Shown piece after piece: positions 4,234-42,722 of a stretch of DNA of 64,000 nt. The notes beneath the pieces were generated by a model that was given only the letters and a program-made list of their open reading frames with translations, was not told the DNA's origin and searched no databases. Both the position numbers and the translations under genes were made by a program. The DNA comes from an uncultured Bifidobacterium sp. (lineage in GTDB: Bacteria > Actinomycetota > Actinomycetes > S36-B12 > UBA5976): the NCBI GenBank assembly GCA_964655115.1, contig CAZZKM010000001.1:91708-155707 (forward strand), in the 5' to 3' direction. Every line of letters starts with the position of its first letter. Within the stretch, counting starts at the first letter, position 1.

Positions 4234-4273
4234 TACTAAAGTAAAGCAAAAAAGAATTTAAGGGGTAATAAAA

Positions 4274-5638: not shown

Positions 5639-5650
5639 GGAGAAAATATC

Positions 5651-6415: not shown

Positions 6416-6417
6416 AT

Positions 6418-8177: not shown

Positions 8178-8893
8178 TTTTTACTTGCTTTTACTAAAGC
8201 TTCAAATAATCTTTTATCCTCACTCATTTCAGGATGCCACTGCACACCCAATGAAAATTCTTTATTTGTATCTTCTAAAACTTCAATGGTGTCATCTTCA
8301 GCCCAACCAGTAATAGTTAAGTTTCCAGGATTTTCAACTGCCTGATGATGAGAAGAATTAACAATAGTTTCTGTGGTATTCAATATTTTTGAAATTAATG
8401 AATCTTTAGAAAATCTAGCCCCATGATTTACAAACTGAGCAGGTGCTGGTCGATGATTTAGTTTTGTCACATCTGGAAGATGTTGAATTAAAGATCCTCC
8501 TTCACTTACTGCCATTATTTGTAAACCTCGACAAATTCCCAAGAATGGTAAATTCATTTCTTTTGCTTTTTTATAAAGACTTATTTCTCCTGCATCTCTT
8601 GTAATTCTTGGCTTATCACTTGTTTCATGTGGATTTTGTTTATAAAGTCTGGCATCAATATCTGCACCACCTGCAATTATTAATCCATCTAATTTTTCTA
8701 AAACATGTGAACCTTCTTCATCAGGTGGAAGAATTACTGCACGACCACCACTTTGTGTAACTGATGAAACATATTCAAAAGGTAAAACTGCCGCAGTTAT
8801 ATCCCAAGCACCCCACTTAGCAGGTTCAACGTAACAAGAAATTCCTATAACTGGTGAATTCATGAATGTAGTCTTGCACAACTTTATTTTCAA
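8174..8893 (-). CDS. class-I glutamine amidotransferase, gamma-glutamyl-GABA hydrolase (PuuD, peptidase C26)-like
   Basis: 239 aa with GICRGLQ nucleophile Cys, SSHHQA and QWHPE motifs. The true start may be the internal MNSPVIGIS (8863). 4-nt overlap with psuG. Confidence 0.75.
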   Translation of the reverse strand: MKIKLCKTTFMNSPVIGISCYVEPAKWGAWDITAAVLPFEYVSSVTQSGGRAVILPPDEEGSHVLEKLDGLIIAGGADIDARLYKQNPHETSDKPRITRDAGEISLYKKAKEMNLPFLGICRGLQIMAVSEGGSLIQHLPDVTKLNHRPAPAQFVNHGARFSKDSLISKILNTTETIVNSSHHQAVENPGNLTITGWAEDDTIEVLEDTNKEFSLGVQWHPEMSEDKRLFEALVKASKK

Positions 8894-28895: not shown

Positions 28896-29633
28896 TTAGC
28901 GTGTTCTTAAGATTAAGAATTGAAATCTTCCTTCCATGAAATATGTACGCGAGTACATAATTGGTTCTCCATCGCCAGCGTAGTGTATCTGTTGTAATAA
29001 AAGGAATAAATCATTAGTGGGACGTTGGTCACCCCATCCAATATTTTTATCAATTACTGCATGAACTTCTGCTAAAGCTCTTAAAGGTCGTTGATTAATT
29101 GAATCTAAACTGGAAAAAACACTTCCAGTTTTCATTTCTTCAACTACTTCTGGTGGCACTGAGGCAATATTTATGGTGTCGTATGAGTAAGCAACTGCTT
29201 TGTTATCAGCCAATACTGCTCTTTCTAAATAAAGAACTGAATCGGCATTATCAAGTTGAAGTTTCTCTATTTCTTGTTTGTTGGCAGGCCTGATTACTGC
29301 AGTTTTGTATTCCATTCCTGGGCTATATCCAAGTTCACTGATTGTTTCTGACATGGATCTAAGTTCATTTAGTCCAGTAGGTATGGCTCTTCCAAAATCA
29401 TTTACATAAGTTCCTGAACCATGACGAATATCGACCAGCCCTTGATACTCCAATGTTTTAAGAGCGGTGCGAACTGTGACTCGAGAGACTTTGTAGGTAG
29501 AAGCTAATTCAGATTCACTATGAATTTTTTCTCCCGGATGCCATTCTTTGTTAAGAATTCGTCGACGAATGTCATCGCTAATGCGACGGGTGAGACTAGC
29601 CCTTGCCCCAAACTGCTCTGGAGAGCTACTCAT
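28896..29633 (-). CDS. GntR/HutC-family transcriptional regulator (wHTH + UTRA effector domain)
   Basis: 245 aa with SESELASTYKVSRVTVRTALKTLEYQGLV and a C-terminal UTRA-like domain. Divergent from the mtnA-like operon. Confidence 0.85.
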   Translation of the reverse strand: MSSSPEQFGARASLTRRISDDIRRRILNKEWHPGEKIHSESELASTYKVSRVTVRTALKTLEYQGLVDIRHGSGTYVNDFGRAIPTGLNELRSMSETISELGYSPGMEYKTAVIRPANKQEIEKLQLDNADSVLYLERAVLADNKAVAYSYDTINIASVPPEVVEEMKTGSVFSSLDSINQRPLRALAEVHAVIDKNIGWGDQRPTNDLFLLLQQIHYAGDGEPIMYSRTYFMEGRFQFLILRTR

Positions 29634-29715
29634 ATAGACCCCATTTTCATTTCTATTTGATAACGCTTTTCCTTAGGGAGTTGACAATTTACACGATATC
29701 TATGAGGCTATTCCC

Positions 29716-29736
29716 AATAGTTGTAGGACAACTATT
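29716..29736 (+). promoter_or_regulatory. palindromic operator, copy 1 (candidate GntR/HutC site)
   Basis: AATAGTTGT-AGG-ACAACTATT, a perfect 9+9 inverted repeat 22 nt upstream of the mtnA-like TTG start. A TTGACA box lies at 29681-29686. Confidence 0.6.
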
Positions 29737-29758
29737 GACTAACAAATAAGGATGGAAG

Positions 29759-30799
29759 TTGAGCGCAGATATAAGAGCCATTTCTTGGGTAGATGATGGG
29801 TTGACCCTTATTGACCAAACCAAATTGCCACACGCAGAAATAAATTTAAACATTAATACTGTTGATCAATTGGTTGAAGCAATTCAAAAACTTTCAGTCA
29901 GAGGTGCACCTGCACTTGGAGCAGCTGGTGCTTGGGGAGTAGTTGTCGCGATGCGGCAAGCTCAAAAAGAAAATTGGAACCAAGAAAAATTAAACAAAGA
30001 AATTTTAAGAATCAGAGATGCAAGACCAACTGCAGTTAATTTAGCTTGGGGTGTAGACAAAGTAAGTCATTTTATTTCTGAAGGTGTTGAAAAAGTTTTA
30101 GAGCAAGCAAATCAAATTGCTAAAGAAGATGAAGAGGGCAATCGAAAAATGGGAAAGTTTGGTTCAGATTGGATTGAATCAAAAGTAAAAAATAGACCAA
30201 TTAGAGCTTTGACGCATTGCAACACAGGATCTCTTGCTACTACAACTTGGGGAACTGCATTAGGTGTTATTAGAGAAATGAATTCAAGAGGAATTTTAAA
30301 ACATGTATTTGCAGATGAAACAAGACCATTATTACAAGGTGGAAGATTAACTGCTTGGGAATTAGCACACGAAAATATTGAACATTTTGTAATTGCAGAT
30401 GGCGCTGCTACAAGTATTATTGCTCGCGGTGAAGTTGATGTTGCATTAATAGGTGCCGATCGAGTTGCTGCAAATGGTGACACAGCAAATAAAATCGGAT
30501 CTTTTGCAGTTGCACTTGCTTGTAAATATGCAGGTATTCCGTTTGTAGTAGTAGCACCAGAATCAACTGTTGATGTGTCTACTAAATCTGAAAAAGATAT
30601 TCATATTGAATATCGGGATGAAAACGAAATATTAAGTTTAAATGGACAAAGAATTTCTCCATTGAAATCAAAAGGACTAAATCCAGCTTTTGATGTGACT
30701 CCTGCTGAGTTGATTTCAGCATTAGTTACAGAAAAAGGTGTTTATGAAATCAATAAGGGCGTTACCCCAGAATCGAAGATGGCAGGAATTAACAAGTGA
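29759..30799 (+). CDS. mtnA: eIF-2B/MtnA-family aldose-1-phosphate isomerase (5-methylthioribose-1-P / 5-deoxyribose-1-P isomerase-like)
   Basis: 346 aa, LIDQTKLPHAE...VRGAPALGAAGAWG...HCNTGSLAT...ADETRPLLQGGRLTAWEL...GADRVAANGDTANKIG. TTG start with RBS AAGGA. Confidence 0.8.
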   Translation: MSADIRAISWVDDGLTLIDQTKLPHAEINLNINTVDQLVEAIQKLSVRGAPALGAAGAWGVVVAMRQAQKENWNQEKLNKEILRIRDARPTAVNLAWGVDKVSHFISEGVEKVLEQANQIAKEDEEGNRKMGKFGSDWIESKVKNRPIRALTHCNTGSLATTTWGTALGVIREMNSRGILKHVFADETRPLLQGGRLTAWELAHENIEHFVIADGAATSIIARGEVDVALIGADRVAANGDTANKIGSFAVALACKYAGIPFVVVAPESTVDVSTKSEKDIHIEYRDENEILSLNGQRISPLKSKGLNPAFDVTPAELISALVTEKGVYEINKGVTPESKMAGINK

Positions 30800-32784
30800 C
30801 AATTCCTAAACCACTTCAAGATTTAGTTGAAAGATCAAAATTTTTAGGCAACAATCAAGATTTTGTTGTTTATGGTGGGGGAAATACATCGGCAAAAGGT
30901 GAAATAGTAGATCACTTAAAGAGACCAAAAAATGTTTTGTGGGTCAAAGGTTCAGGCGCAGACATGATGAATGCTGAAGCTGTTGATTACCCTGCACTTT
31001 ATTTGGATGAATTGATTGCTTTAAAGCAATTTGAAAAATTAAGTGATGAGGAAATGACTGACTTAGTGGGGAAAGCTTTAGTTGACCCAAACAGCAGAAG
31101 ACCCTCCATTGAAACCTTGTTGCATGCATTCTTACCTTTTAAGCACATTGATCATGTGCATGCAGATGCAATTTGTGCTTTAACAAATCATAAAGATGGA
31201 AATAAAGCGGTAAAAGAAGCATTGGGTGAAAATTTTGCTTACGTTGATTGGATTCGACCTGGATTTGAACTAAGCAAACAAGCTTCTCAATTAGCAGATT
31301 CAGAAGGAATAATTTTGGCACATCATGGATTAATAGTTTGGTCTGACGATAGTGATGAATGCAAACAAAAGAATACAGATGTGATAAATAAAGTTGAAAA
31401 TTATTTATCGAGTTTAACTAAAAGACCAGAATCTATTTTTAATCACACAACCTATTCAGATGAAGAATTTGAAAATTTATTGTTATTAGTAAGAGGAAAA
31501 TTAAATAAAAAATCTAAAAAAATAATTTCAGTAGATTCAAGATTAAAAGAAACTTCAGATAGAAAAGATATAAAAGAAATAGTTCAAGCTGGAGTATCAA
31601 GTGCTGATCATATGTTGAGAATTAAACCTTGGTCTGCAGTTATAGAAAATGGCAAAAATGATCAATCCATCTTTGAATCTATAGATAAATATTCGAATTC
31701 ATACAAAACATACTTTGAAAATAATAAAAATTTATTACCTCAGGGTTATTCAATGCATGATTCAGATCCTAAAGTTTTGTTAGCTCCAGGAATCGGTGCA
31801 TTGACTGTTGGATTAAGTAAATCTGAATGCAAAATGCTTGCAGATATTTCTTTTCATACTCACAAAACTGCTTCAATGGCAAAAGATGCTTTTGGCAACG
31901 TTGAAGCTTTGCCTGATTCAGAAGTTTTTGGTTTTGACTACTGGCCAATGGAACTTTACAAGTTAGCAAGTAGACCTGCACCAAAGAAATTTGCCGGACA
32001 TGTCTTCATAGTTACGGGTGCTGGAAGCGGTATAGGTCGTGGAATAGCAGTTGAACTTGCCAAGCAAGGTGCAAGTTTAGTTTTAGCAGATCTTGATGCA
32101 AAAGGACTTGCAACTGTAGAAAGTGAAATAAAAAACTACAAAGGATCTAGTCCTCAGATTATTCAAGGGGATCAATCAGATGAAAAAGTTGTTAAGCAAA
32201 CGGTTTCTGAAGCGATAAAAACTTTTGGTGGAATTGATGGAGTGGTATTTAGCGCAGGGATCGCAGTCACAGATAGTTTGCAAGATTTGACAATTGAAAA
32301 ATGGAATAAAGGATTAAGTGTTAACTTAACTAGTTCATTTTTATTAACTAAATATGCGATGAAGGCATTAACCAAACAAAATTCAGGTGGATCACTTGTT
32401 TATATCGCAAGTAAAAATGCATTTTCACCAGGAATTGGTTTTGGAGGATATTCAGTAAGTAAAGCAGGAATGATTCAACTAATGCGCATGGCTGCATTAG
32501 AGGGTGGATCTCATCAAATCAGATCCAATGCAATTAATCCTGATGCAATTTTTGATAACAGCAAATTATGGGAAGGAGGAATCAGAGAGGAAAGAGCTAG
32601 AGCTCATGGCATTAAACCTGAAGAGTTAGAAGATTTTTATGCCAAGAGAAATATTTTAAAATCCCATGTTTCATCAATTGATGTTGCGAATATGACAAGC
32701 TTTTTACTTTCAGATGATTCCGCCAAAACAACAGGCTCGGTCATTGCCGTCGACGGCGGAGTGGCTGCTGCATTTCCGCGCTAA
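30796..32784 (+). CDS. bifunctional class-II aldolase / short-chain dehydrogenase (RhaEW / RhaD-aldolase-ADH family)
   Basis: 662 aa. N-terminal aldolase/adducin-type domain (YGGGNTSAKG, HVHADAI) and C-terminal SDR (VTGAGSGIGRG, YSVSKAG). The GTG start overlaps the mtnA stop (GTGA). Confidence 0.85.
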   Translation: MTIPKPLQDLVERSKFLGNNQDFVVYGGGNTSAKGEIVDHLKRPKNVLWVKGSGADMMNAEAVDYPALYLDELIALKQFEKLSDEEMTDLVGKALVDPNSRRPSIETLLHAFLPFKHIDHVHADAICALTNHKDGNKAVKEALGENFAYVDWIRPGFELSKQASQLADSEGIILAHHGLIVWSDDSDECKQKNTDVINKVENYLSSLTKRPESIFNHTTYSDEEFENLLLLVRGKLNKKSKKIISVDSRLKETSDRKDIKEIVQAGVSSADHMLRIKPWSAVIENGKNDQSIFESIDKYSNSYKTYFENNKNLLPQGYSMHDSDPKVLLAPGIGALTVGLSKSECKMLADISFHTHKTASMAKDAFGNVEALPDSEVFGFDYWPMELYKLASRPAPKKFAGHVFIVTGAGSGIGRGIAVELAKQGASLVLADLDAKGLATVESEIKNYKGSSPQIIQGDQSDEKVVKQTVSEAIKTFGGIDGVVFSAGIAVTDSLQDLTIEKWNKGLSVNLTSSFLLTKYAMKALTKQNSGGSLVYIASKNAFSPGIGFGGYSVSKAGMIQLMRMAALEGGSHQIRSNAINPDAIFDNSKLWEGGIREERARAHGIKPEELEDFYAKRNILKSHVSSIDVANMTSFLLSDDSAKTTGSVIAVDGGVAAAFPR

Positions 32785-32799
32785 ACGGAAATGAAAACA

Positions 32800-32825
32800 A
32801 ACGAATAAATACAAATTTATTCGTT
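32800..32825 (+). promoter_or_regulatory. 11-bp hairpin between the aldolase/SDR and SBP genes
   Basis: AACGAATAAAT-ACAA-ATTTATTCGTT, followed by the RBS AAGGAGAAGG of the SBP gene. Confidence 0.4.
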
Positions 32826-32841
32826 AAAAGAAGGAGAAGGA

Positions 32842-33942
32842 ATGGTAAGAAATAAAAGCAAAGCTTTGGCTGGTATTTCAGTCGTTGCTGCGTTACTTCT
32901 TGCTGCATGTGCACAAAGTGGTAGTGATACCGCTGCACCAGCGGCAGAAGAAGGAACTGTTGAAGAAGCAACTGCAACTAAGCCTGCACCATTTGATGCT
33001 GGCCCAGTAAAAATTGCAATTGTTCAAAACAGTGGTGCTGGAGATTATTTCCAACAATGGACAAACGGTGCTAATCAACAAGCTGAAGCAATCGGATTTG
33101 AAGTTCAAATTTATGATGCTCAAGCAGATAACGCAAAACAAGCAACAGATATGGAAACTGCTATTGCTTCAGGAGTAGCAGGCATCATTGTTGATCACGG
33201 TCAAAAAGACACTATGTGTCCATTGATTAAAAAAGCAACCGATGCAGGAATTCCTGTAGTTGTTTATGACGTAGTTGTAAATGATTGCGCACCAGATGCA
33301 GTTCAAACACAACAAAGTGATGCATCACTTGCACAAGCTGTGTTGGATCAAATGGCTGCAGATCTAGGTAAAGATGCCAAAGTCGGTTATGTAAACGTTT
33401 TGGGTATTGCACCTCTAGATCGTCGTCACGTTGTATGGGAAAAAATTGTTGCTGACAACAATTGGACCCAATCATTCTTCGTTGGAAAATTCACCAACGC
33501 AGTTGCAACAGATAACGCACAATTAGTTGATGCTGCACTTAAAGCTAATCCAGACGTAGTGGGAATTTTTGCTCCATACGATGAATTAACAAAAGGTACA
33601 GTTTCTGCAATTGAACAAAACAATCTACAAGCTTCAATCAGAGCTTATGGAATTGATATTTCAAATGCTGATATTGAAATCATGACCAAAGAAGGAAGTC
33701 CATGGACTGCAACTGCAGGTACTGATCCAAACGCGATTGGTGCAGCAGTAGTTAGAAACATGGCTCTTGAACTTGCTGGTCAACTTGGAACTAAGTCAGT
33801 TGATTTCCCAGGTGTACTTATTACTGCACAATTCCTAAAGGACAATGCAGTTAAGAACATGGTAGATCTACGTGCTGCACTTCCAGAATTGAATCTTGCA
33901 GAAGTAAGTTCTGCAGATTGGATTCCAGCAGTTAAGTTCTAG
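32842..33942 (+). CDS. CUT2 (ribose/RbsB-like) sugar ABC transporter substrate-binding lipoprotein
   Basis: 366 aa with signal peptide and lipobox LLLAAC, and a type-1 periplasmic-binding fold (IAIVQNSGAGDYFQQ..., GIIVDHG). Confidence 0.85.
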   Translation: MVRNKSKALAGISVVAALLLAACAQSGSDTAAPAAEEGTVEEATATKPAPFDAGPVKIAIVQNSGAGDYFQQWTNGANQQAEAIGFEVQIYDAQADNAKQATDMETAIASGVAGIIVDHGQKDTMCPLIKKATDAGIPVVVYDVVVNDCAPDAVQTQQSDASLAQAVLDQMAADLGKDAKVGYVNVLGIAPLDRRHVVWEKIVADNNWTQSFFVGKFTNAVATDNAQLVDAALKANPDVVGIFAPYDELTKGTVSAIEQNNLQASIRAYGIDISNADIEIMTKEGSPWTATAGTDPNAIGAAVVRNMALELAGQLGTKSVDFPGVLITAQFLKDNAVKNMVDLRAALPELNLAEVSSADWIPAVKF

Positions 33943-33970
33943 ATTTAACTAGAAACTAAGGATAGGTGAG

Positions 33971-35479
33971 TTGATGGCAACGGCAGTTGAAGTAAGAGAT
34001 ATCTCAATGTCATTTGGTTCAAACCAAGTGCTAACTGGAGTAGATCTTGCTATCAATAAAGGACAAACCACTGCACTATTAGGTGCAAATGGAGCCGGAA
34101 AGTCAACATTGATAAAAATTTTGTCAGGAGTTTATTCATCCTTTACCGGACAAATAATTATCGATGGACAACTTGTAACCATCGACTCACCTGTCACTGC
34201 AAGAGCATCAGGAATAGAAACAGTTCATCAAAGAATTGATGAAGGTGTAATTCCTGGATTAACGGTAGCTGAAAATCTACTTTTCGAAAGAATAGTTACA
34301 GGAGATATTAAAAAAACTATTTCTCCAAATGAAGTTATTGATATTGCAAGTGAAATAGCAAAGGCATTAGATTTAAATTGGAATAATAATATCCTTAAAA
34401 AAGATGTCTTTGAAATCGGAATTGCTGAACAACAACTTTTGATATTAGCAAGAGCTCTTTCAAGAAAACCAAAATTATTGATTTTAGATGAGCCAACTTC
34501 AGCCCTTTCAGCTTCTGAAAGTCAAAATCTTTTTAAAGTAATTAAAAATTTAGAAAATCAAGGAATTGCAATTCTTTATGTTTCGCATAAATTAAGCGAA
34601 ATTGAACAAATTGCACAAAGATTAGTAGTTATTCGTGATGGAAAAATCAGAAATGAACAGAGCGCTCCATTTAGTTGGGAAGATGCTCTTAAAGAAATGT
34701 TAGGACAAGAGTCTCTAAATAAAAATAATGAATTTGATGTAGTTGAAGGAAAAGGCGTGGTATTAAAATTAAATAACATAAAACTTTTTAAAGAAAGTGA
34801 ACCTATAAATGTTGAATTTAGAAAAGGTGAAGTGACTGGAGTTATTGGCCTTCTTGGAGCTGGGAAAACAGAATTAGCAAAAATCATTTTTGGTGCTGAT
34901 AAACCTTTAACAGGTGAAATGATTCTTGAGGGAAAAAAATATGAACCAAAACATCCTGCCGAAGCTGTTAATAAAGATATATTTTTAGTCCCAGAAGATC
35001 GTGCTGCAGAATCAATGATTTCAGGTTGGAATATTAGTGAGACTTCAACGTTGCCTTTTATGAAAAAGTTTTCGAGTAGAGGTGTAATTAATAAAATAAG
35101 TGAACTTGCAAGAGGTAAAAAACTTGTTGAAGATTTAAATGTAGTAACTACATCTCATATTGCACCTGTTGATTCACTTTCAGGTGGTAATCAACAGAAG
35201 GTGGTTGTGGGCCGCTGGTTGCAAGAGTCACCAAAAATGATGATGCTGGATGAACCTTTTAGAGGTGTAGATATTGGGGCCAGAAGAGATATTTCAAAAA
35301 GAGTGAGAAATCTTGCAGCAAATGATGTAGCTGTTTTGGTTCTTGCTTCTGATGTAGATGAAATATTAGAAGTTGCTGATCGAATTATTGTTTTAGTCGA
35401 AGGAAAAATAGTTCTTGATGTAAGTTCCACAAATACATCAAAAGATAAAATAGTTAACAAAATGTCGGAGGTGGCATAA
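33971..35479 (+). CDS. sugar ABC transporter ATP-binding protein (duplicated ATPase, RbsA-like)
   Basis: 502 aa. Walker A GANGAGKST, LILDEPTSAL, and a second half with LSGGNQQKV and MLDEPFRGVD. Confidence 0.9.
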   Translation: MMATAVEVRDISMSFGSNQVLTGVDLAINKGQTTALLGANGAGKSTLIKILSGVYSSFTGQIIIDGQLVTIDSPVTARASGIETVHQRIDEGVIPGLTVAENLLFERIVTGDIKKTISPNEVIDIASEIAKALDLNWNNNILKKDVFEIGIAEQQLLILARALSRKPKLLILDEPTSALSASESQNLFKVIKNLENQGIAILYVSHKLSEIEQIAQRLVVIRDGKIRNEQSAPFSWEDALKEMLGQESLNKNNEFDVVEGKGVVLKLNNIKLFKESEPINVEFRKGEVTGVIGLLGAGKTELAKIIFGADKPLTGEMILEGKKYEPKHPAEAVNKDIFLVPEDRAAESMISGWNISETSTLPFMKKFSSRGVINKISELARGKKLVEDLNVVTTSHIAPVDSLSGGNQQKVVVGRWLQESPKMMMLDEPFRGVDIGARRDISKRVRNLAANDVAVLVLASDVDEILEVADRIIVLVEGKIVLDVSSTNTSKDKIVNKMSEVA

Positions 35480-36508
35480 ATGTCAGTAGGGATAACCAAA
35501 GAAGGTCAAGGTTTTGACACTAGAGAATTTGTTGTCAAATACGGATTTATCGTCGTAACTGTTTCACTATTTCTGTGGTTTGCCATAACAGAGCCATCAT
35601 TTAGAATGCAATCTACTTTATTTTCCATGCTTAAATTTACCTCTGTTGTAGCCATCACAGGTCTTGGTGTGACTTTAACGATGGTAGTTGGAGGATTAGA
35701 TTTATCTGTTGGCTCAGTAGCTGGATTATCAGTAACACTTTCGGCGATGACGATGGTTATTTATGCTCAAACAGGTGGAGTTGCTTTAATTGTAGTTTTA
35801 TTAGGTGGAGCTTTAGTTGGTTTGTTTAATGCATTTTTAATTGTTGTTTTAAAAATTCCAGATTTATTGGCAACATTAGCAACTATGTTTACGATTATGG
35901 GATTAAAACTTGTTCCGGTTGATGGCCAATCTGTTTCTTCAGGTTTAATTTTAAGAGATGGAAGTGTTGCCCCTGGAAAATTTACTCCCGGATTTTTATT
36001 AATTGACAGAGCCTATATTGGGCCAGTGCCACTTCCTGTTGCAATATTTTTTATTCTTGCATTTGTTGTGTGGTTCTTTTTAACAAGAACTAGGTGGGGC
36101 AGAGTCATGTATGCAATCGGCTCTAATCCAGAAGCTGCAAGACTTGCAGGTGTCAGAGTAAAAAGATATCGAGCATTTGCATATGTCATGTCTGGTGTTT
36201 TTGCATCAATTGGTGGATTAATTTTGTCTTCTCGAATTGGTCAAGGAGATATCAGTGCTGGAAATTCACTTCTTTTAGATGCAGTAGCTGTAGCTTTAGT
36301 TGGAACATCAGTTCTAGGAATTGCAAAGCCAAATGCTTGGGGCACCATTCTTGGTGCAGTACTAATTGGAATCGTGATTACTGGCTTAACTATTAAAGGT
36401 TTTCCATATTATGCACAAGATGTAGTAAAGGGATTAGTGCTTTTAACTGCTCTAATTTTCTCATTTACTTTATCTCGAAAGAAATCAAAATTCGTTCCAG
36501 CGGTGTAA
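35480..36508 (+). CDS. sugar ABC transporter permease (RbsC-like)
   Basis: 342 aa with about 10 TM helices and GGLDLSVGS. Its start abuts the ATPase stop. Confidence 0.85.
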   Translation: MSVGITKEGQGFDTREFVVKYGFIVVTVSLFLWFAITEPSFRMQSTLFSMLKFTSVVAITGLGVTLTMVVGGLDLSVGSVAGLSVTLSAMTMVIYAQTGGVALIVVLLGGALVGLFNAFLIVVLKIPDLLATLATMFTIMGLKLVPVDGQSVSSGLILRDGSVAPGKFTPGFLLIDRAYIGPVPLPVAIFFILAFVVWFFLTRTRWGRVMYAIGSNPEAARLAGVRVKRYRAFAYVMSGVFASIGGLILSSRIGQGDISAGNSLLLDAVAVALVGTSVLGIAKPNAWGTILGAVLIGIVITGLTIKGFPYYAQDVVKGLVLLTALIFSFTLSRKKSKFVPAV

Positions 36509-36518
36509 AGGAAAAAAT

Positions 36519-37745
36519 ATGGCAAATGATTACGAATATTTAAGTAAAGACAATATTTCACAATATTTGAAAAGTAAATCAGTTTTCAATAATTTAATTG
36601 ATGCCGATAATATTGTGGAATTTAACGAAGTCGGAGACGGTAATTTAAATCTAGTTTTTATTCTTAAAGATTCAAAAGGAAAAGGAGTTGTACTTAAGCA
36701 AGCACTTCCTTACGTAAGACTGGTTGGACCAGATTGGCCTATGACGCCAAGTCGAGCACGAATTGAATCTGAAACAACAATAATTCATTCAAAATTTGCT
36801 AAGGATTTAGTTCCAGAAATTTATGATTTTGATGAAGAGCGTTTTATTATCGCTATGGAAGATCTTTCTGATCATCGAGTATGGCGCGGAGCATTAAATG
36901 AAGGTTTGCGTTACGAAGGTGTCGCAAAACCATTAGGTGAGTACGTTGCTAAAACAGCATTTGGCACATCTGTATTCGGTTTGGGCCATGACAAGCATAA
37001 ACAAGAAGTTGCCAGAGCGATTAATCCAGAACTTTGTCTAATAACTGAAGACTTAGTTTTTACTGAACCATATTTTGATAATGGCCGAAACTCGGTCCTA
37101 GAAACAAATAAAAAAGATGCTGAAGATTTAGCAAATGACAAAGACATGGTTAGAGAAATAGGTTTACTCAAATATAAATTTATGACTTCTGCCGAAAGTT
37201 TAATACACGGAGATCTTCATACTGGATCTGTCATGATCAAAGGAAATGACCAAGAACAAGCAATAAGCGTGAAGGCAATTGATTGCGAGTTTGCATTCTA
37301 TGGACCACTTGGATTTGATTTAGGGGCATTAATTGCAAACTACACAATTGCAGCAGCAAGAGCTAGAGCACTTGGAAATGTTGAACAAATGAAATGGCTT
37401 TTATCATTAGCAGAGCAAACCTGGGAAGGTTTTGAATCGACAATTAGAAAGTTATGGCCAACAAGAGTAGATAAAAGAGTATTTAATGATGAAGTTTTTG
37501 AAAACTTGATTAAAACTTGGAAATCAGATGCTCAAGGTTACGCTGGAGCAAAGATGGCTAGAAGAATTGTGGGTTTAGCAAAAACATCAGATATAGAAAC
37601 CCTGGAACCAAATTTAAGAGAAGGCGCTGCACGGGCTGTGTTACAAATGGCAAGACTTTCAACTAAAGAAAGAGATTTAGGCAAATCTTGGAAAAACATT
37701 GCCCAACAATTTGAAACAATAATCGAAAAAACCGTTACGAAGTAA
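36519..37745 (+). CDS. mtnK: MtnK-family 5-methylthioribose (or 5-deoxyribose) 1-kinase
   Basis: 408 aa with EVGDGNLNLVF, the APH-type catalytic loop HGDLHTGS and IDCEFAFYGPLGFDLG. Confidence 0.8.
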   Translation: MANDYEYLSKDNISQYLKSKSVFNNLIDADNIVEFNEVGDGNLNLVFILKDSKGKGVVLKQALPYVRLVGPDWPMTPSRARIESETTIIHSKFAKDLVPEIYDFDEERFIIAMEDLSDHRVWRGALNEGLRYEGVAKPLGEYVAKTAFGTSVFGLGHDKHKQEVARAINPELCLITEDLVFTEPYFDNGRNSVLETNKKDAEDLANDKDMVREIGLLKYKFMTSAESLIHGDLHTGSVMIKGNDQEQAISVKAIDCEFAFYGPLGFDLGALIANYTIAAARARALGNVEQMKWLLSLAEQTWEGFESTIRKLWPTRVDKRVFNDEVFENLIKTWKSDAQGYAGAKMARRIVGLAKTSDIETLEPNLREGAARAVLQMARLSTKERDLGKSWKNIAQQFETIIEKTVTK

Positions 37746-37753
37746 GGAAAAAT

Positions 37754-38113
37754 ATGAAAACTCCTAGAGAAATTGCTGAATCTTATTGGAAAGCAGAATG
37801 CGCAAGGGATACTGAAGCAGTCCTTGCTCACTACCACTTGGATGCAACATTTTGTCCTCCTGGACAAGTTCTAAAAGGACACGAACAAATCAGAACTTTT
37901 TATGATTCATCAGGAGAATCTTTTCCAGGTTTAAAAGTAGATATCGTTCATGAAGTTAGAAATGGTGACGAAAGTTGCATTGAATGGTATGCGACGTTAA
38001 CGGATAAAAAAGGAAATGTTTTTAATATTCCAGGTGTTAACGTTATAAAAATTAGAGATGGAAAATTTGAATCAGTTCATGCCTATTTTGATCCAACTGT
38101 TTTGAATTCTTAA
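37754..38113 (+). CDS. NTF2/SnoaL-like small protein
   Basis: 119 aa with a ketosteroid-isomerase/SnoaL-like pattern (ESYWKAECARDTEAVLAHYHLDATF...IKIRDGKFESVHAYFD). Last gene of the plus-strand operon. Confidence 0.6.
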   Translation: MKTPREIAESYWKAECARDTEAVLAHYHLDATFCPPGQVLKGHEQIRTFYDSSGESFPGLKVDIVHEVRNGDESCIEWYATLTDKKGNVFNIPGVNVIKIRDGKFESVHAYFDPTVLNS

Positions 38114-39213
38114 TTTTCGAATCTTTCAACGCTTTTTCTTAAATTAGACGCATTCTCTAATAAATTTCCTCGGTGTAAAGCGCCACCAATCAATAAAACA
38201 GTGTCATTACCAAAAAATCCAACTAGTTCATCAATTCGATCTAACGTCATTCCTCCACCTGGGCTTGGAAAAATAGTTTTTAAATTACTAAATTCATTTC
38301 TGCAACTACGTGAAATTCGTAAGCATTCTTCTTTTGTAAAACTAAATCTTCCTCCATAATTAGGAAATACTGTTATATCTGCACCACTTAAGCGCATTAA
38401 TTTTGCTAAGACAATTTCATGATTTATTCCATGATTTGGATTCATAAATAATGAACCAAGCATCGAAGGATGACTCATTATAGGTAAATTAATTTCGTCT
38501 GAATCTGCAATACTTCTCATCGCATCAAAACTTGAAACTCCAGGTAAAACCATTAGAGCCCCTGCTCCTAGTTTTCTTGCAGTTGTTGCTTTTTCAAATA
38601 TTTGATGTGAGGGAAGGTTCACACTAGGTGCATAAACTGAATTTCTATTAAATTTTACATTTGCAGTATTAACTGCATCTGAAATTATTTTGACTCTCTC
38701 ATCCCAAGTCGCCCAAGGTTGGTTTGCCAAACTGTGGTCATCTTTTATTAAATCAATTCCTGCTTCAACCATGGTTGCTGCGATAACGGCTAATTCTTTT
38801 GCACCCAATCCCATTGGCTTTAGAGCCGTTGCCAAAATTGGTCTTGATTTTGCATTAAAAAGTTTTCTAACTCCTTGGATTCCGAAACGAGGACCTTTAA
38901 ACTTATTTAAAAAAACTTCATCAAATTGAATATCTGTGATACGGACTTCTGGAAACATTGAAACGTTACCCCAAAGTACATTTAAAAACTGGGGTAGTTC
39001 ATAACCTGTGGTGTCAAGATTAAAAGAAATCTTTATTTCAGATCTTTTTTCAGTTAACTTCTTGCTTGAAACAAAGTGAGCAACTACTTCATTTTGAATC
39101 CAGGCGGGAGCAAGGTCAAAAGGAAACTCTATAGTTTGTTCTACCCTAATTGCTTCAATTATTTCTTTTTCATTACTTGAATTAATTTCGTAAGTTACTT
39201 CGAAATTGCGCAT
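38110..39213 (-). CDS. form-IV RuBisCO-like protein (RLP), short N-terminal domain
   Basis: 367 aa with a large-subunit barrel. By-eye alignment to RuBisCO motifs: GNVSMF (GNVFGF), LKPMGL (KPKLG), IDLIKDDHSL (DFTKDDE), SHPS, PSPGGG, LIGGAL. Confidence 0.8.
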   Translation of the reverse strand: MRNFEVTYEINSSNEKEIIEAIRVEQTIEFPFDLAPAWIQNEVVAHFVSSKKLTEKRSEIKISFNLDTTGYELPQFLNVLWGNVSMFPEVRITDIQFDEVFLNKFKGPRFGIQGVRKLFNAKSRPILATALKPMGLGAKELAVIAATMVEAGIDLIKDDHSLANQPWATWDERVKIISDAVNTANVKFNRNSVYAPSVNLPSHQIFEKATTARKLGAGALMVLPGVSSFDAMRSIADSDEINLPIMSHPSMLGSLFMNPNHGINHEIVLAKLMRLSGADITVFPNYGGRFSFTKEECLRISRSCRNEFSNLKTIFPSPGGGMTLDRIDELVGFFGNDTVLLIGGALHRGNLLENASNLRKSVERFEN

Positions 39214-39218
39214 TGCCT

Positions 39219-40241
39219 TTATAGCGCCTCTGCTTTAGCAGTGCTATGAACGTCAATTTCTCTAGAAATTTCTAAATCTTTTTCAGATATGTCTAATTGT
39301 TTTTCAATTAGTCCTTCTATTGTTGAGATTAATCGTTTTGCGCCTAGATCGTATTTATTTAACAAATATTTCAAAGAAGCTCCATGGGCGTAAGTATCAT
39401 TAAGTCCAATTCGAACCAATTTTTTGCCAATTCCTTCTTCTGCCATAATTTCTGAAACCGCGGTTCCTAATCCACCAACAATTGTGTGGTTTTCCATAGT
39501 TATTACGCCATGTTTAGCAGTTTTTATTGCTTCAATAATTTGTGGATCTGTTAAAGGTTTAATTGTAGAAACGTGTAAATGTTGAATAGTTACACCTTTA
39601 TTTTTTAATGCAGGTATGGCTCGTAAAGCTTCTTCGGTTGAAATTCCAGAAGAAATTACTGTTACATCAAAACCATGACTTAAAATTCTTGCTTTATTAA
39701 ATTCCATAACCTCATTTCGAGGAAATATTCTTGAAATCTCTCCGCGAAGCATACGAATGTAAACAGGTCCGTCAATTTTATGTGCTACATCTAAAACGGA
39801 TTCAACTTCTGTAGCATCACCTGTTTCTAGAATTGTCATATTTGGGATTCCACGCATAACATTTATGTCATCAATTGCTTGATGAGTAACGCCACCTGGT
39901 GTAGTGATTCCTGGTAAAAATCCCACCATTCTCACAGGTAGATTTGGATAAGCAACTGACATTTGTAATTGATCAAGAGGTCTTCTGTAAATAAAAACAG
40001 CAAAAGTGTGAATCCAAGGCTGGAATCCCTCACGGGCTAGACCTCCAGCAAAGCCCAACATATTTTGCTCACCTAATCCAAAAGAAAAAAATCTGTCTGG
40101 GTAGGTATCTCTAAATTTTCCAACTTCGCATGAGCTAGTTAAGTCGGCAGATAAGACTACGACTTCTGGTTTGTATTTGCTCCACTTAACAAAATTTTCA
40201 ACGTGAGGTCTTTTTACAATTTCATAAGCCATTATTTCCAC
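39219..40241 (-). CDS. transketolase, C-terminal (pyrimidine-binding + C-domain) subunit
   Basis: 340 aa with FSFGLGEQNMLGFAGGLAREG, HQAIDDINVMRGIPN and NHTIVGGLG. Confidence 0.85.
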   Translation of the reverse strand: MEIMAYEIVKRPHVENFVKWSKYKPEVVVLSADLTSSCEVGKFRDTYPDRFFSFGLGEQNMLGFAGGLAREGFQPWIHTFAVFIYRRPLDQLQMSVAYPNLPVRMVGFLPGITTPGGVTHQAIDDINVMRGIPNMTILETGDATEVESVLDVAHKIDGPVYIRMLRGEISRIFPRNEVMEFNKARILSHGFDVTVISSGISTEEALRAIPALKNKGVTIQHLHVSTIKPLTDPQIIEAIKTAKHGVITMENHTIVGGLGTAVSEIMAEEGIGKKLVRIGLNDTYAHGASLKYLLNKYDLGAKRLISTIEGLIEKQLDISEKDLEISREIDVHSTAKAEAL

Positions 40242-41152
40242 CTACTTAAAAATTGCATATATTTATTTTTTTCAAAAACATTTGCAAATCTCACATAATG
40301 AAGTGCATCAGGTCTGTCTTTTAAGATTTCAATACCTTTTGTTGGATCTGTGTAACCTAAAATAACTTTTGGTTTATCACCAATATTTAATCCAGAATTA
40401 AGAATTTGCTTTATATCATTTCCATCAATTTCATCAACATCCCAACCAAAACTTCTAATACGATCTGCTAAGGGTTCAATTTTCATAACTTTATCCATTG
40501 GTCCATCTACTTGATTTTTATTTACGTCAACCAAAATTCTTAAATTATTTAGTTCATGAAACGAAATAGCACCGAGGGCTTCCCAAGTTTGACCTTCTTG
40601 GAATTCTCCATCTGACATAAAAATCCAAGTTTTCCCAGATTCACCTTTTAGCTTTCTGGCTAATGCAACACCACCGGCTTGTGAAATTGCTTGAGCAAGA
40701 GAACCGGTTGTTGTTTCAAAACCTGGAGAGTGTTCTGCGCCAATCATTTCCACTGTAGAGCCATCTTTATTAAATTTCTCTAAAGATTTTTCTGTTAATC
40801 TTTTGCATTCGATTAGCGCAGCATAAACAACCAATGCATAATGTGCAGGACTAATAAATAAGCGATCTAATTCTGGTTTTTTTTCTCCATGAAACTCTGC
40901 TCCAGTTATGTAGTCTTTAAAATTTTTGCTTGGAACGTTTACAAATTCTCTTGGGTCTAATGGTTCTTTTAAAGGAGATAAGTTGACTAATCGGGAGTAC
41001 AAACTTGCCAACATTTCAGCAGCTGAGCAAGCTTGGCTTAGATAGCCCCCGTTGTTTATTACTGTATGTTCCAGGACTCGATGTCTGATCCCATGGGCCA
41101 TAGAGGCAATTTTTGATACTTCTGTCTCTGCGACAGTTTCGGAAGTAGTCAT
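40232..41152 (-). CDS. transketolase, N-terminal (ThDP-binding) subunit
   Basis: 306 aa with GGYLSQACSAAEMLASLY, GSLAQAISQAGG and the SDGEFQEGQTWEA ThDP motif. 10-nt overlap with the C-subunit gene. Confidence 0.85.
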   Translation of the reverse strand: MTTSETVAETEVSKIASMAHGIRHRVLEHTVINNGGYLSQACSAAEMLASLYSRLVNLSPLKEPLDPREFVNVPSKNFKDYITGAEFHGEKKPELDRLFISPAHYALVVYAALIECKRLTEKSLEKFNKDGSTVEMIGAEHSPGFETTTGSLAQAISQAGGVALARKLKGESGKTWIFMSDGEFQEGQTWEALGAISFHELNNLRILVDVNKNQVDGPMDKVMKIEPLADRIRSFGWDVDEIDGNDIKQILNSGLNIGDKPKVILGYTDPTKGIEILKDRPDALHYVRFANVFEKNKYMQFLSRWK

Positions 41153-41172
41153 TGCCTCAGAATAGCAAAGAG

Positions 41173-41193
41173 AATAGTTGTCCTACAAGTTTT
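41173..41193 (-). promoter_or_regulatory. operator copy 2 upstream of the transketolase/RLP operon
   Basis: The minus strand reads AAAACTTGTAGGACAACTATT. This is 19/21 identical to copy 1, with an identical 16-mer TTGTAGGACAACTATT, and lies 20 nt upstream of the ATG. Confidence 0.55.
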
Positions 41194-41207
41194 ATTTTTA
41201 AGGGTTT

Positions 41208-41246
41208 AAGGGCTCTTGGGGATTATTCAAGAGCCCTTATTTTTTT
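41208..41246 (+). terminator. 11-bp hairpin with plus-strand U-tract between whiB3 and the transketolase operon
   Basis: AAGGGCTCTTG-N9-CAAGAGCCCTT followed by ATTTTTTTT. Confidence 0.45.
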
Positions 41247-41272: not shown

Positions 41273-41572
41273 TTAGCCAGCTACTGGCATTACTTCTTTA
41301 ACTGGTGCATAGAGTGCTTCGCGATCATCTTCACTCATCGCACCCCACACACCGTATGGTTCTCTAACTTCCAATGCATGTGCAGCACATTGCTTTAACA
41401 CTGGACAAGTTGCACAGATAGATTTCGCTAAAGCAATTCTTTGCTCGCGAGCAGGTCCACGCTCACCTTCGGGGTGAAAGAAGATTTCTGGATCTTCACC
41501 ACGGCAAGCACCCTTTAATTGCCAATCCCAAAGATCGGCATTTGGTCCAGGAAGTCTGGTTATGTCGGCCAT
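41273..41572 (-). CDS. whiB3: WhiB-family Fe-S transcription factor (WhiB3/WhiD orthologue)
   Basis: 99 aa. LPGPNADLWDWQLKGACRG...CATCPVLKQCAAHALEVREPYGVWGAMSE matches, by recall, the M. tuberculosis WhiB3 N-terminus and its four Cys. Confidence 0.9.
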   Translation of the reverse strand: MADITRLPGPNADLWDWQLKGACRGEDPEIFFHPEGERGPAREQRIALAKSICATCPVLKQCAAHALEVREPYGVWGAMSEDDREALYAPVKEVMPVAG

Positions 41573-41648: not shown

Positions 41649-42722
41649 ATGACTAATTTTGTGAAGTCGCTCTCACTTAGGCCTCGAATAGCCAAAGTTG
41701 TTCACTTGGTGAACAATATGCTCATGGGTTTAAATCCTGAGGAAGAAAACGTCATCACCCTAGGGCTCACGGTAGCCGTGGTGGCAAGACGTGTGGGGGT
41801 AGCTCCAGCGACCTTAAGAACCTGGGAACGCCGGTATGGCCTATGTCCCACGGATAGATCTCAAGGTGGACACCGCCGATATTGCATCACCGATATTGCT
41901 CGTCTAGAAATAATGCGAAAGTTAGTTCTTTCAGGAATGCCAGCAGGAGAAGCTGCCAAAGTTGCTTTAAATACCAAAGTTGAAAATATTTCAAATATCT
42001 CTCCAGTTGATCCAAACTCATTAAGTAGCAAAATAGAAAATTTAGTTAAAACTCTTGATCATTCAGAAAAATTTGGCCATCCAGGTGGAGGTCAAGTTTT
42101 ATCGATGGAAGGTGCTTCAAGTGCGGCTAGAGGACTTGCAAAAGCTGCTCACTCATTAGATAACCAGGCATGTAATCAAATAATTGCAGCAAGTATTAAC
42201 TCTCGAGGAGTTATTTGGACTTGGGAAAATTTAATTTCAAAAGTTTTAATCGCCATTGGTGCTAAATGGGAACAAACTGGTGATGGTATTGAAGCAGAAC
42301 ATGTTTTAAGTGAAGCAATTATTGGTCAAATGAGACTTAGAGCAGATCAATTAATTGCTCCTGTAAATATTCGACCTGTATTAATGGCATCTGCTCCAGA
42401 TGAATTACATACCATTCCACAATATGTAACTGCTGCAGCTTTAGCAGAAAGAAGAATTAGTTCCAAAGTATTGGGAGCAAGAGTTCCTTACACATCATTA
42501 ATAAATTCAGTAAAAAGACTTGCCCCAGCTGCAGTTTTAATCTGGGCTCAAATTCCTGTGAAAAATATTGATCCCGAATTAGAGAACTTAAGTAATTTAA
42601 GACCAAGTCCACTCATGTTGGTGGCAGGTCCTGGATGGCCTATGCAACTACCAAGTAATTTTAAAAGAAGTAGTGATTTAACGAGCACAATTACTGCAAT
42701 TACAAATTCTGTAGGTTTATAA
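41649..42722 (+). CDS. MerR-family regulator with CarH/LitR-like B12-binding C-terminal module
   Basis: 357 aa. MerR HTH LTVAVVARRVGVAPATLRTWERRYGL, W-x9-EH motif (KWEQTGDGIEAEH), and the ExHxx(G/P) B12-ligand motif ELHTIP. The start is probably an internal ATG at 41718 or 41724. Confidence 0.65.
   Translation: MTNFVKSLSLRPRIAKVVHLVNNMLMGLNPEEENVITLGLTVAVVARRVGVAPATLRTWERRYGLCPTDRSQGGHRRYCITDIARLEIMRKLVLSGMPAGEAAKVALNTKVENISNISPVDPNSLSSKIENLVKTLDHSEKFGHPGGGQVLSMEGASSAARGLAKAAHSLDNQACNQIIAASINSRGVIWTWENLISKVLIAIGAKWEQTGDGIEAEHVLSEAIIGQMRLRADQLIAPVNIRPVLMASAPDELHTIPQYVTAAALAERRISSKVLGARVPYTSLINSVKRLAPAAVLIWAQIPVKNIDPELENLSNLRPSPLMLVAGPGWPMQLPSNFKRSSDLTSTITAITNSVGL

Follow-up and report, generated by a model that had tools for sequence, protein, structure and literature searches.

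A regulated RuBisCO-like protein locus with an atypical split thiamine diphosphate enzyme and its probable role in 5-methylthioribose salvage in Actinobacteria

In Rhodospirillum rubrum and Rhodopseudomonas palustris, 5'-methylthioadenosine (MTA) enters the MTA-isoprenoid shunt, where the isomerase MtnA is followed by a DeepYkr-type RuBisCO-like protein (RLP). R. palustris RLP1 and the R. rubrum RLP have been shown experimentally to be 5-methylthioribulose-1-phosphate (MTRu-1-P) 1,3-isomerases, and their product, 1-methylthioxylulose-5-phosphate, is the substrate of a cupin methylsulfurylase (PMC5893883). A related arrangement is encoded at positions 28896-41193 of a 64,000-nt stretch of DNA (the window) from the uncultured Bifidobacterium sp. 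assembly GCA_964655115.1 (contig CAZZKM010000001.1, positions 91,708-155,707). This locus resembles the shunt in combining MtnA with a DeepYkr-type RLP that has the same diagnostic residues, and its close actinobacterial relatives carry the Rru_A2000-type cupin of the shunt, together with a sulfhydrylase, beside the RLP gene. It differs from the shunt in having an atypical split thiamine diphosphate (ThDP) enzyme instead of the cupin, in a predicted entry by ATP-binding cassette (ABC) import and the kinase MtnK rather than by MtnP, and in that the RLP route shares an operator and a regulon with an aldolase branch. Since the product of the window route is unlikely to be 1-deoxyxylulose-5-phosphate (DXP), there is probably no link to isoprenoid synthesis of the kind found in the shunt.

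The locus also shares with the dihydroxyacetone phosphate (DHAP) shunt and with 5-deoxyribose salvage (DrdK, DrdI, DrdA) the order of kinase, 1-phosphate isomerase, class-II aldolase and aldehyde-handling dehydrogenase. However, Ald2 of the DHAP shunt is FucA-like, whereas the window aldolase is RhaD-like, is fused to a short-chain dehydrogenase/reductase (SDR) as in the rhamnose RhaEW type and, unlike its DHAP shunt counterpart, is co-regulated with the RLP/ThDP branch. Canonical and split transketolases (TKs; Escherichia coli TktA and Carboxydothermus hydrogenoformans 6yak/6yaj, respectively) have the same fold and ThDP-Mg motif as the ThDP enzyme of the locus, which is divided into alpha and beta subunits in the manner of 6yak/6yaj; unlike canonical TKs, the window-type pair is always encoded immediately upstream of an RLP. 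Beyond the ThDP fold that they share, the likeness to phosphoketolase and sulfoacetaldehyde acetyltransferase (Xsc) is confined to the proposed chemistry, in which an enamine with a beta-leaving group (here methanethiolate) would give acetyl-ThDP. Split TK-like and/or RLP genes are found in sugar clusters for apiose (AptAB, OiaC/OiaX) and for sulfoquinovose (sulfo-TK pathway) as well, and an earlier note on this DNA had drawn that comparison. It fails at the sequence level (OiaX/OiaC model NF042437, 86 bits against a cut-off of 700), and a pathway of either type was rejected because HMM (hidden Markov model) scores lie far below the cut-offs and the other genes of these pathways are absent from the locus, where the partners are instead mtnK and mtnA.

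On balance, the locus appears to serve the uptake and salvage of 5-methylthioribose (MTR), derived from MTA, via MtnK, MtnA and then two branches, as judged from gene content, and it very likely handles 5-deoxyribose as well. MTA/MTR salvage by MtnA and a DeepYkr-type RLP is the known part of this system, and the activity of the ThDP pair is probably its new element. A full-text literature search returned no link of an RLP to a transketolase in MTA/MTR metabolism, although older subscription literature may mention the gene context.

Genes were called by open reading frame (ORF) calling combined with Pfam and equivalog HMM scans, with equivalog scores set against the model cut-offs. All gene calls of the earlier note agreed with these results. 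The features of the locus are as follows.

28896-29633, minus strand: GntR/HutC-family repressor with winged helix-turn-helix (HTH) and UTRA domains (PF00392, 68 bits; PF07702, 55 bits), divergent from mtnA
29716-29736, GntR/mtnA intergenic region: predicted operator 1, AATAGTTGTCCTACAACTATT, centre 34 nt upstream of the mtnA start
29759-30799, plus strand: MtnA, 5-methylthioribose-1-phosphate (or 5-deoxyribose-1-phosphate) isomerase (TIGR00512, 414 bits, cut-off 279)
30796-32784, plus strand: fused class-II (RhaD-like) aldolase/SDR (PF00596 with PF13561/PF00106; TIGR02632, 544 bits, cut-off 568)
32842-33942, plus strand: CUT2 sugar-binding lipoprotein, the substrate-binding protein (SBP) (PF13407, 118 bits; lipobox LLLAAC)
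33971-35479, plus strand: tandem ABC ATPase of the CUT2 importer (two PF00005 domains)
35480-36508, plus strand: single CUT2 permease (PF02653, 142 bits)
36519-37745, plus strand: MtnK, 5-methylthioribose (or 5-deoxyribose) 1-kinase (TIGR01767, 398 bits, cut-off 275)
37754-38113, plus strand: small SnoaL/NTF2-like accessory protein (PF12680, 58 bits)
38110-39213, minus strand: RLP, DeepYkr type (PF00016, 92 bits)
39219-40232, minus strand: TK C-part (TK-C) with Pyr and C-terminal domains, beta subunit of the atypical split ThDP enzyme (PF02779, PF02780)
40232-41152, minus strand: TK N-part (TK-N) with the PP domain, alpha subunit of the atypical split ThDP enzyme (transketolase models, below cut-off)
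41173-41193: predicted operator 2, AATAGTTGTCCTACAAGTTTT, with two mismatches to operator 1, centre 30 nt upstream of the TK-N start

The RuBisCO-like protein and its alternating partners

By sequence, the window RLP is of the DeepYkr type. Its best PDB match is 3qfw, over the full length (E 1.6e-63), ahead of 4nas (7.6e-48), the YkrW types 3fk4, 2oek/2oej and 2zvi (1e-37 to 1e-40), outside which 4nas groups, the Photo type (~1e-34) and 3nwr (1e-20). In a neighbour-joining tree of 84 related RLPs and four structures, all 84 proteins group with 3qfw and outside 4nas, 3fk4 and 2oek. At each of 12 clade-discriminating positions the window RLP has the residue of 3qfw (N78, N83, A130, P133, H160, Q165, P196, P224, N285, R289, F290 and G320), from which all three enolase-type structures differ; these residues are invariant or nearly so among the 84 relatives, and they include the position of the catalytic Lys of the enolase (Asn83 here) and the change from KDDE to KDDH. 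Alignment to RLP structures shows the form-IV substitutions, with K175 kept and K177 replaced by Met in ALKPMGL and E204 replaced by His in IKDDH. The PDB matches, the tree and the 12 residues thus uphold the link to the R. rubrum-type enzyme drawn in the earlier note and place the protein in the R. rubrum/R. palustris isomerase type, so that it presumably converts MTRu-1-P to 1-methylthioxylulose-5-phosphate. An assignment as YkrW/MtnW enolase was rejected, given the scores on TIGR03332 (159 vs 514 bits) and NF007095 (217 vs 409 bits) and the replacement of the FGKLS Lys by Asn83 in 84 of 84 relatives.

The gene context of the RLP was followed in nine loci from genome contigs, retrieved with a single RLP query, and 80 loci from metagenomes, retrieved with an alignment query; individual loci are denoted by L numbers. 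The collected homologues span 41-98% identity, their loci, onto which the window proteins were mapped, range from 36 to 75% GC, and pairing was counted in the 62 for which 2.2 kb or more of upstream sequence was available. TK-N, TK-C and RLP follow one another in this order on one strand in 42 of the 62; from the alignment ends, the apparent gap from TK-C to RLP is mostly below 60 nt. TK-linked loci are labelled Actinomycetota, Symbiobacterium and Herpetosiphonaceae. In the reverse direction, the loci of five TK-C homologues chosen from protein searches were inspected. They include those of Symbiobacterium terraclitae, a Herpetosiphonaceae metagenome-assembled genome (MAG) and another MAG that carries the label Rudaea, and in every one TK-C is immediately followed by an RLP gene. 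Many genomes show synteny of RLP homologues with the split TK, mtnA and mtnK, as the earlier note would have predicted.

A different partner is seen in RLP relatives at 53-64% identity, which adjoin an Rru_A2000-type cupin, an O-acetylhomoserine sulfhydrylase and an MTA phosphorylase (MTAP); the cupin was found in L009-L013, L017 and L018. On the 1.4-Mb contig L010 the order is MTAP-like < / MtnA > AldSDR > cupin > RLP (AldSDR denoting the fused aldolase/SDR), and the best PDB match of this cupin is Rru_A2000 (~50% identical, E 4e-41), which we take to be the R. rubrum methylsulfurylase. In L017, which is closely related to the window (identities of 64% for the RLP, 69% for AldSDR, 65% for MtnA and 56% for the neighbouring CopC), the order is cupin < O-acetylhomoserine sulfhydrylase < / RLP >, with the sulfhydrylase scoring 595 bits on TIGR01326 (cut-off 495), and the window has TK-N > TK-C > RLP at that spot. 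In the window itself, tblastn with the L010 cupin gave no match at E 1e-3, and the claim of the earlier note that neither a cupin nor a phosphorylase is present is borne out across all 64 kb. In the tree, RLPs with a TK partner and those with a cupin partner are intermixed, and the two sets do not differ at the discriminating positions. The simplest reading of the alternation of TK and cupin beside indistinguishable RLPs is that the two represent alternative ways of handling the same RLP product.

An atypical split thiamine diphosphate enzyme

The enzyme that occupies the position of the cupin was compared with the split TK of C. hydrogenoformans (6yak/6yaj) and with human TK, using E. coli residue numbers for the canonical enzymes. 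Its alpha and beta subunits have 6yak and the split TK 6yaj, respectively, as best PDB matches, yet scores on transketolase equivalog HMMs are far below cut-off (190 vs 488 bits), as is that on the DXS model TIGR00204 (147 vs 466 bits). In 41 alpha sequences, canonical His26 is invariably replaced by Tyr37, within GYLSQACS, and the GHP loop carrying His100 by VEMIGAEHSPG; these subunits also have SDG instead of GDG and a 30-aa insertion. In 51 beta sequences, Leu109 invariably stands for His461 and Pro115-Gly116 for Glu468-Asp469, the motif FLPG(I/L)TT-PGGxTHQ taking the place of THxG..GEDGxxHQ, while His78 and Arg86 are newly conserved, together with Tyr85 in 50 of the 51. ThDP-Mg binding appears to be kept, with SDGE..N211 and GEQN conserved and the Asp of GDG and Asn185 retained. 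Other TK residues that persist are Glu411 and His473, His66 (38 of 41) and a His in the motif LHYxRF, and the phosphate binders Arg358 (Lys in 2/51), Ser385 (Asn in 2/51) and Arg520. Of the features that define a transketolase, the ThDP/Mg motif and the activating Glu are therefore present, and His26, His100, His461 and Asp469 are not.

In canonical TKs the lost residues hold the C1 hydroxyl of the donor, catalyse C2-C3 cleavage and hold the C2 hydroxyl of the acceptor, and their loss suggests that the donor lacks a C1 hydroxyl and that the C2 fragment has another fate. By its conserved residues, the split pair is a distinct ThDP enzyme family, with an active site that was clearly remodelled for a reaction other than that of a transketolase. 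The description of the pair as a split transketolase in the earlier note holds for the split but not for the transketolase, given the replacement of four active-site residues or loops, and the idea that an ordinary transketolase is fed by the RLP was not borne out. The presence of a distinct and highly conserved ThDP family in the position of the cupin methylsulfurylase also makes plain C2 transfer unlikely. The degree of conservation is evident from TK-C identities of 59-71% where RLP identity is down to 41-49%.

Among 1.84 billion cluster representatives, the family comprises a handful that share at least 55% identity, some with fused subunits; next, at identities of no more than 46%, come further atypical TK-like families whose versions of the motif differ, and then the canonical enzymes. 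The fused alpha and beta polypeptides of the RLP-linked family (P0361, P0362, P0364 and P0365) are 575-875 aa long, and P0364 has ~280 additional N-terminal residues without a Pfam match. Several other split TK-like families (P0372-P0402) also lack His461 and Asp469 and have motif variants such as GFMPGVSS-PGG, GFTPGIST-FLG and ALPGLTT-GYG, which suggests that atypical enzymes of the transketolase fold form a wider, uncharacterised radiation.

The altered active site bears on two alternative substrates. Were ribose, or nucleoside-derived ribose-1-phosphate, to be degraded, the ribulose-1-phosphate made by MtnK and MtnA would be cleaved by the aldolase to DHAP and glycolaldehyde or converted by the RLP to xylulose-5-phosphate, from which ordinary C2 transfer would lead into the pentose phosphate pathway. 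Such chemistry yields a natural TK donor, but the four residues that TKs use for the donor C1 hydroxyl, C2-C3 cleavage and the acceptor C2 hydroxyl are lost, and a housekeeping TK would suffice. The best named match of the SBP is RbsB, though at 49 bits against a cut-off of 337, and class-II ribulose-1-phosphate aldolases exist in archaeal nucleoside catabolism, with the NCBIfam model NF053831 matching the Symbiobacterium aldolase at 100 bits, below its cut-off. The window MtnA, however, fits MtnA structures far better than ribose-1,5-bisphosphate isomerase, and the links to MTA phosphorylase, an MTA/5'-deoxyadenosine-deaminase-like hydrolase, the cupin and the sulfhydrylase would be left unexplained, so that a ribose pathway seems distinctly improbable.

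Somewhat less remote, yet still unlikely, is that the branch serves 5-deoxyribose, derived from 5'-deoxyadenosine. The RLP would then make DXP from 5-deoxyribulose-1-phosphate, and the ThDP enzyme, a relative of DXP synthase, would cleave or re-use it, giving glyceraldehyde-3-phosphate and an 'active acetaldehyde', to be set free or passed on. Loss of the His100 loop and of His26 fits a donor without a C1 hydroxyl here too, both MTR and 5-deoxyribose are substrates of MtnK- and MtnA-type enzymes in the DHAP shunt, the beta subunit scores nearly as high against DXP synthases as against human TK (107 vs 116 bits), and faint Pfam DXP_synthase_N matches occur on the alpha subunits of relatives. 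On the other hand, the DXS counterparts of TK Asp469 and His26, presumably Asp427 and His49, are missing as well; DXP is already useful, so that no enzyme would be needed after the RLP; and its cleavage would merely duplicate the yield of the aldolase branch. The interchange with a C-S-cleaving cupin and the adjacent O-acetylhomoserine sulfhydrylase point instead to a methylthio compound, as expected if the RLP branch handles MTR.

A single regulon with core and accessory parts

Operator 1 consists of two perfectly complementary arms about a 3-nt centre (AATAGTTGT-AGG-ACAACTATT; 21 nt in all), and both sites in the window fit the operator pattern within three mismatches, against a chance expectation of 0.01 and with none of 100 shuffles reaching as many. 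In 14 related loci mtnA is preceded, at a distance of 21-36 nt, by the core GTTGT-CCT-ACAAC; the TK alpha gene has this core 22-70 nt upstream in L001, L006, L008, L014-L016, L029, L045, L050 and L056, of which L008 and L056 carry the operator at both promoters, like the window. It is kept at these positions across loci of 36-68% GC, and GntR orthologues are divergently encoded beside mtnA in L002, L004, L005, L007, L008, L028, L053 and others. The HTH and UTRA domains of the GntR protein thus occur together with inverted-repeat sites at both promoters, as is characteristic of GntR/HutC repressor systems. Judged by these predicted operators, the locus is a single GntR/HutC-repressed regulon, and the shared operator proposed in the earlier note is recognizable both in the window and in diverged relatives. 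That the operons are adjacent by chance, with a coincidental or unrelated palindrome, is hardly credible in view of the low expectation of operator matches, the retention of both sites at the same two promoters in diverged genomes and synteny across several phyla. The repressor presumably leaves both operators once a pathway intermediate occupies its UTRA domain.

The genes are tightly packed, as described earlier, with a GTGA overlap between mtnA and the aldolase gene (30796-30799), a TAATG overlap between the TK-N stop and the TK-C start, and convergent stop codons of the SnoaL and RLP genes that overlap as TTAA (38110-38113). The permease start directly abuts the ATPase stop (35479/35480), and the spacer between TK-C and RLP is 5 nt. 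The TAATG overlap indicates that TK-C most likely starts at the ATG at 40232 and not at the GTG at 40241; its homologues are 337 aa long.

The most conserved part across loci is TK-N/TK-C/RLP, commonly together with MtnA. The importer and MtnK are missing from the otherwise identical loci L002, L004, L005 and L007, whereas L029 retains them downstream and has an added divergent module upstream of the TK genes, composed of genes for a Bmp-type nucleoside SBP, an MTA/5'-deoxyadenosine-deaminase-like hydrolase and an MTAP-like phosphorylase. The same module is present in L045, L050 and L056 (the SBP gene was not seen on the shorter L050), and between it and the TK genes lies an exact operator core in L029 and L056 and a one-mismatch copy in L045 and L050. 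The route is therefore not hard-wired to the importer, as had been suggested, given the absence of importer and MtnK from some loci and the MTAP/nucleoside-SBP modules of others.

The aldolase/SDR is also absent from many TK-RLP loci. The operons of L084 and L088 run SBP-ATPase-permease-MtnK-MtnA-TKN-TKC-RLP, and Herpetosiphonaceae L096 has MtnA-TKN-TKC-RLP, all without an aldolase, while in S. terraclitae (L094) a single operon encodes TKN, TKC, RLP, two SBPs, a SorC-type regulator, an ATPase, a permease, MtnK, MtnA and a class-II aldolase. Two MtnA paralogues occur in L069 (1-9074), L071 and L074, one adjoining an aldolase/SDR fusion that is full-length and shares only 30% identity with that of the window and the other in MtnK-MtnA-TKN-TKC-RLP, which suggests separate isomerases for two substrates or parallel branches.

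These arrangements also bear on the possibility that the ThDP enzyme acts after the aldolase, either on 2-(methylthio)acetaldehyde, from which methanethiol would be eliminated in an Xsc-like manner, or with free MTR or 5-deoxyribose as acceptor, the RLP being separate. The aldolase and TK genes belong to one regulon, an enzyme lacking Asp469 and the phosphate-binding His461 would be suited to a small aldehyde that carries no phosphate, and a transketolase acting on 5-deoxyribose is documented, as the Synechococcus TK uses it as an acceptor to make 7-deoxysedoheptulose (PMC8102628). Nevertheless, TKN-TKC-RLP and MtnA occur, with or without MtnK, in the aldolase-free loci L084, L088, L096, L041, L070 and L073, the TK genes always adjoin the RLP and not the aldolase, and the substrate-phosphate binders Arg358, Ser385 and Arg520 are conserved, all of which makes action after the aldolase a poor prospect. 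Taken together, the 5-deoxyribose, ribose and after-aldolase explanations account less well than MTR salvage with a ThDP step after the RLP for the alternation with cupin and sulfhydrylase, the rebuilt active site or the aldolase-free operons.

MtnK and MtnA both pass their equivalog cut-offs, as the earlier assignment to these families implied; the best PDB match of MtnK is the Bacillus subtilis MTR kinase 2olc (E 4e-69), and those of MtnA are the MtnA structures 1t9k and 2yrf, with only 89 bits for ribose-1,5-bisphosphate isomerase. The aldolase/SDR falls just under the TIGR02632 cut-off, and its PSIE, HxH (DHVH), HHG, TGxxxGIG and YxxxK motifs are intact. The importer has the components of a CUT2 (ribose-type) system, namely a Peripla_BP_4 SBP, a fused double ATPase and a BPD_transp_2 permease; the SBP scores only weakly on RbsB, RhaS and XylF models, and operons of this type in L084, L088 and Symbiobacterium L094 encode SBPs that are 30-35% identical to it. 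The 119-aa SnoaL/NTF2-like gene adjoins mtnK only in the closest loci (L001, L014-L016 and L063), and a sugar anomerase or mutarotase-like function of its product is possible.

The locus lies in DNA of 35% GC. Its flanking genes, namely groEL, guaB3 and those for a CopC-like and a WhiB-like protein, indicate that the host is an actinobacterium. A planktonic host dependent on reduced sulfur, as envisaged earlier, is plausible given the WhiB-like and GuaB3 genes and close relatives labelled Nanopelagicales. Between operator 2 and the WhiB-like gene (41273-41572, minus strand) lies a strong hairpin with a 14-bp stem followed by T7 (41207-41239, plus strand), which is oriented as a plus-strand terminator yet has no plus-strand gene upstream. 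The WhiB-like gene is followed divergently by a MerR-type regulator gene (41649-42722), whose similarity to the B12/light-dependent repressor CarH (73 bits) is below cut-off, and then by a LuxR-type HTH gene, in an order kept in L001, L014 and L016. Elsewhere in the window (2851-8893), a set of genes resembles gamma-glutamyl-polyamine catabolism (glutamine-synthetase-like ligase, aldehyde dehydrogenase, SDR, PfkB-family kinase, unannotated 298-aa ORF and gamma-glutamyl-GABA-hydrolase-like amidotransferase) and appears unrelated to the RLP/TK locus.

Proposed route and its significance

According to the proposed route, MTR would be imported by the lipoprotein SBP and the CUT2 ABC transporter, phosphorylated at C1 by MtnK and converted by MtnA from MTR-1-phosphate to the ketose-1-phosphate MTRu-1-P. 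In one branch, the aldolase/SDR would cleave the ketose-1-phosphate to DHAP and an aldehyde that is then reduced or oxidised; in the other, the RLP would shift the carbonyl to give 1-methylthio-D-xylulose-5-phosphate, to be consumed by the translationally coupled alpha/beta ThDP enzyme. Two fates at the ketose-1-phosphate, as suggested in the earlier note, have a precedent in R. palustris, which runs the RLP/cupin and Ald2 routes side by side (PMC5893883).

For the ThDP enzyme, it is conceivable that ThDP attacks C2, the C2-C3 bond breaks and glyceraldehyde-3-phosphate leaves, after which the resulting 2-(methylthio)-1-hydroxyethyl-ThDP enamine, which has a good beta-leaving group, expels methanethiolate, and the remaining acetyl-ThDP leaves as acetate, acetyl-phosphate or acetyl-CoA. 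By analogy with known ThDP enzymes this sequence of glyceraldehyde-3-phosphate release, methanethiolate elimination and acetyl-ThDP formation is the preferred reading, although its chances are put somewhat below even. Phosphoketolase and sulfoacetaldehyde acetyltransferase, and pyruvate decarboxylases in their reaction with fluoropyruvate, offer precedents for the elimination, and 1-methylthioxylulose-5-phosphate has the D-threo configuration that transketolase-fold enzymes cleave. The methanethiol could then be recaptured by O-acetylhomoserine sulfhydrylase, remaking methionine. The RLP-linked pair might accordingly be regarded, with some added reserve, as a new '1-methylthioxylulose-5-phosphate ketolase / C-S lyase', a redox-neutral replacement for the cupin that needs no thiol co-substrate. 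A ThDP-dependent carboligation of the C2 unit with glyoxylate to 2-oxo-4-methylthiobutyrate was also considered and dropped, there being no associated dehydratase and no other support.

Several observations weigh against MTR salvage by this route. The substrates of all enzymes of the locus are deduced from sequence; HMMs for MtnK and MtnA are not expected to tell MTR enzymes from 5-deoxyribose paralogues; and among named proteins the SBP best matches binders of ribose, rhizopine and rhamnose, with very low scores. MTRu-1-P has the D-erythro configuration, yet RhaD, which the aldolase domain resembles, forms or splits L-threo diols. As for the RLP, 3qfw is taken to be R. palustris RLP1, the PDB table naming it only as a RuBisCO large subunit and one paper citing it no more closely than as an RLP structure. 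The loss of His461 and Asp469, which in canonical enzymes contact the glyceraldehyde-3-phosphate part, means that binding of 1-methylthioxylulose-5-phosphate in the canonical pose is not assured. Furthermore, no MTA phosphorylase, nucleosidase or methanethiol-capturing sulfhydrylase is encoded in the 64-kb window, 13 of the 62 loci have MtnA > AldSDR > RLP with neither TK nor cupin adjacent, and L100 (4754-10174) has TKN-TKC-RLP without mtnA within 8 kb.

The loci in which the RLP lacks both partners are L034 (484-9083), L019-L021, L027, L028, L032, L033, L037-L039, L044 and L048. Upstream in L034 are genes for a rhodanese, a GFO/IDH oxidoreductase, an ApnL-like lactonase of 587 aa that scores 263 bits (under the cut-off) and an SDR. 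In L100, one gene of the DHDPS family and one of the class-V aminotransferase family lie ahead of TKN-TKC-RLP.

If MTR salvage through the ThDP pair is correct, it would give a role to a large and environmentally abundant share of form-IV RLPs, about two thirds of the sampled clade being TK-linked, and a ThDP C-S lyase would be the majority partner of the sampled DeepYkr-type RLPs in Actinomycetota, Chloroflexota and Symbiobacterium. With the proposed chemistry there would, besides the cupin methylsulfurylase and the DHAP/ethylene route, be a third means of recovering the methylthio sulfur of MTA, one that would release the same methanethiol as the cupin route, send all carbon to central metabolism and need no glutathione-type thiol; the lineages that carry the TK variant are not known to make glutathione. 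As S. terraclitae is cultured and has the complete gene set in one operon, the model can be tested now.

There are abundant freshwater actinobacteria that need reduced sulfur, and for these organisms dissolved methylthioribose would, on the same condition and by way of the high-affinity importer, be a source of both sulfur and carbon. The presence of a repressor-controlled importer with a lipoprotein SBP suggests that by-products of S-adenosylmethionine are traded as dissolved organic sulfur by streamlined freshwater actinobacteria, and the route could in turn be a source of methanethiol.

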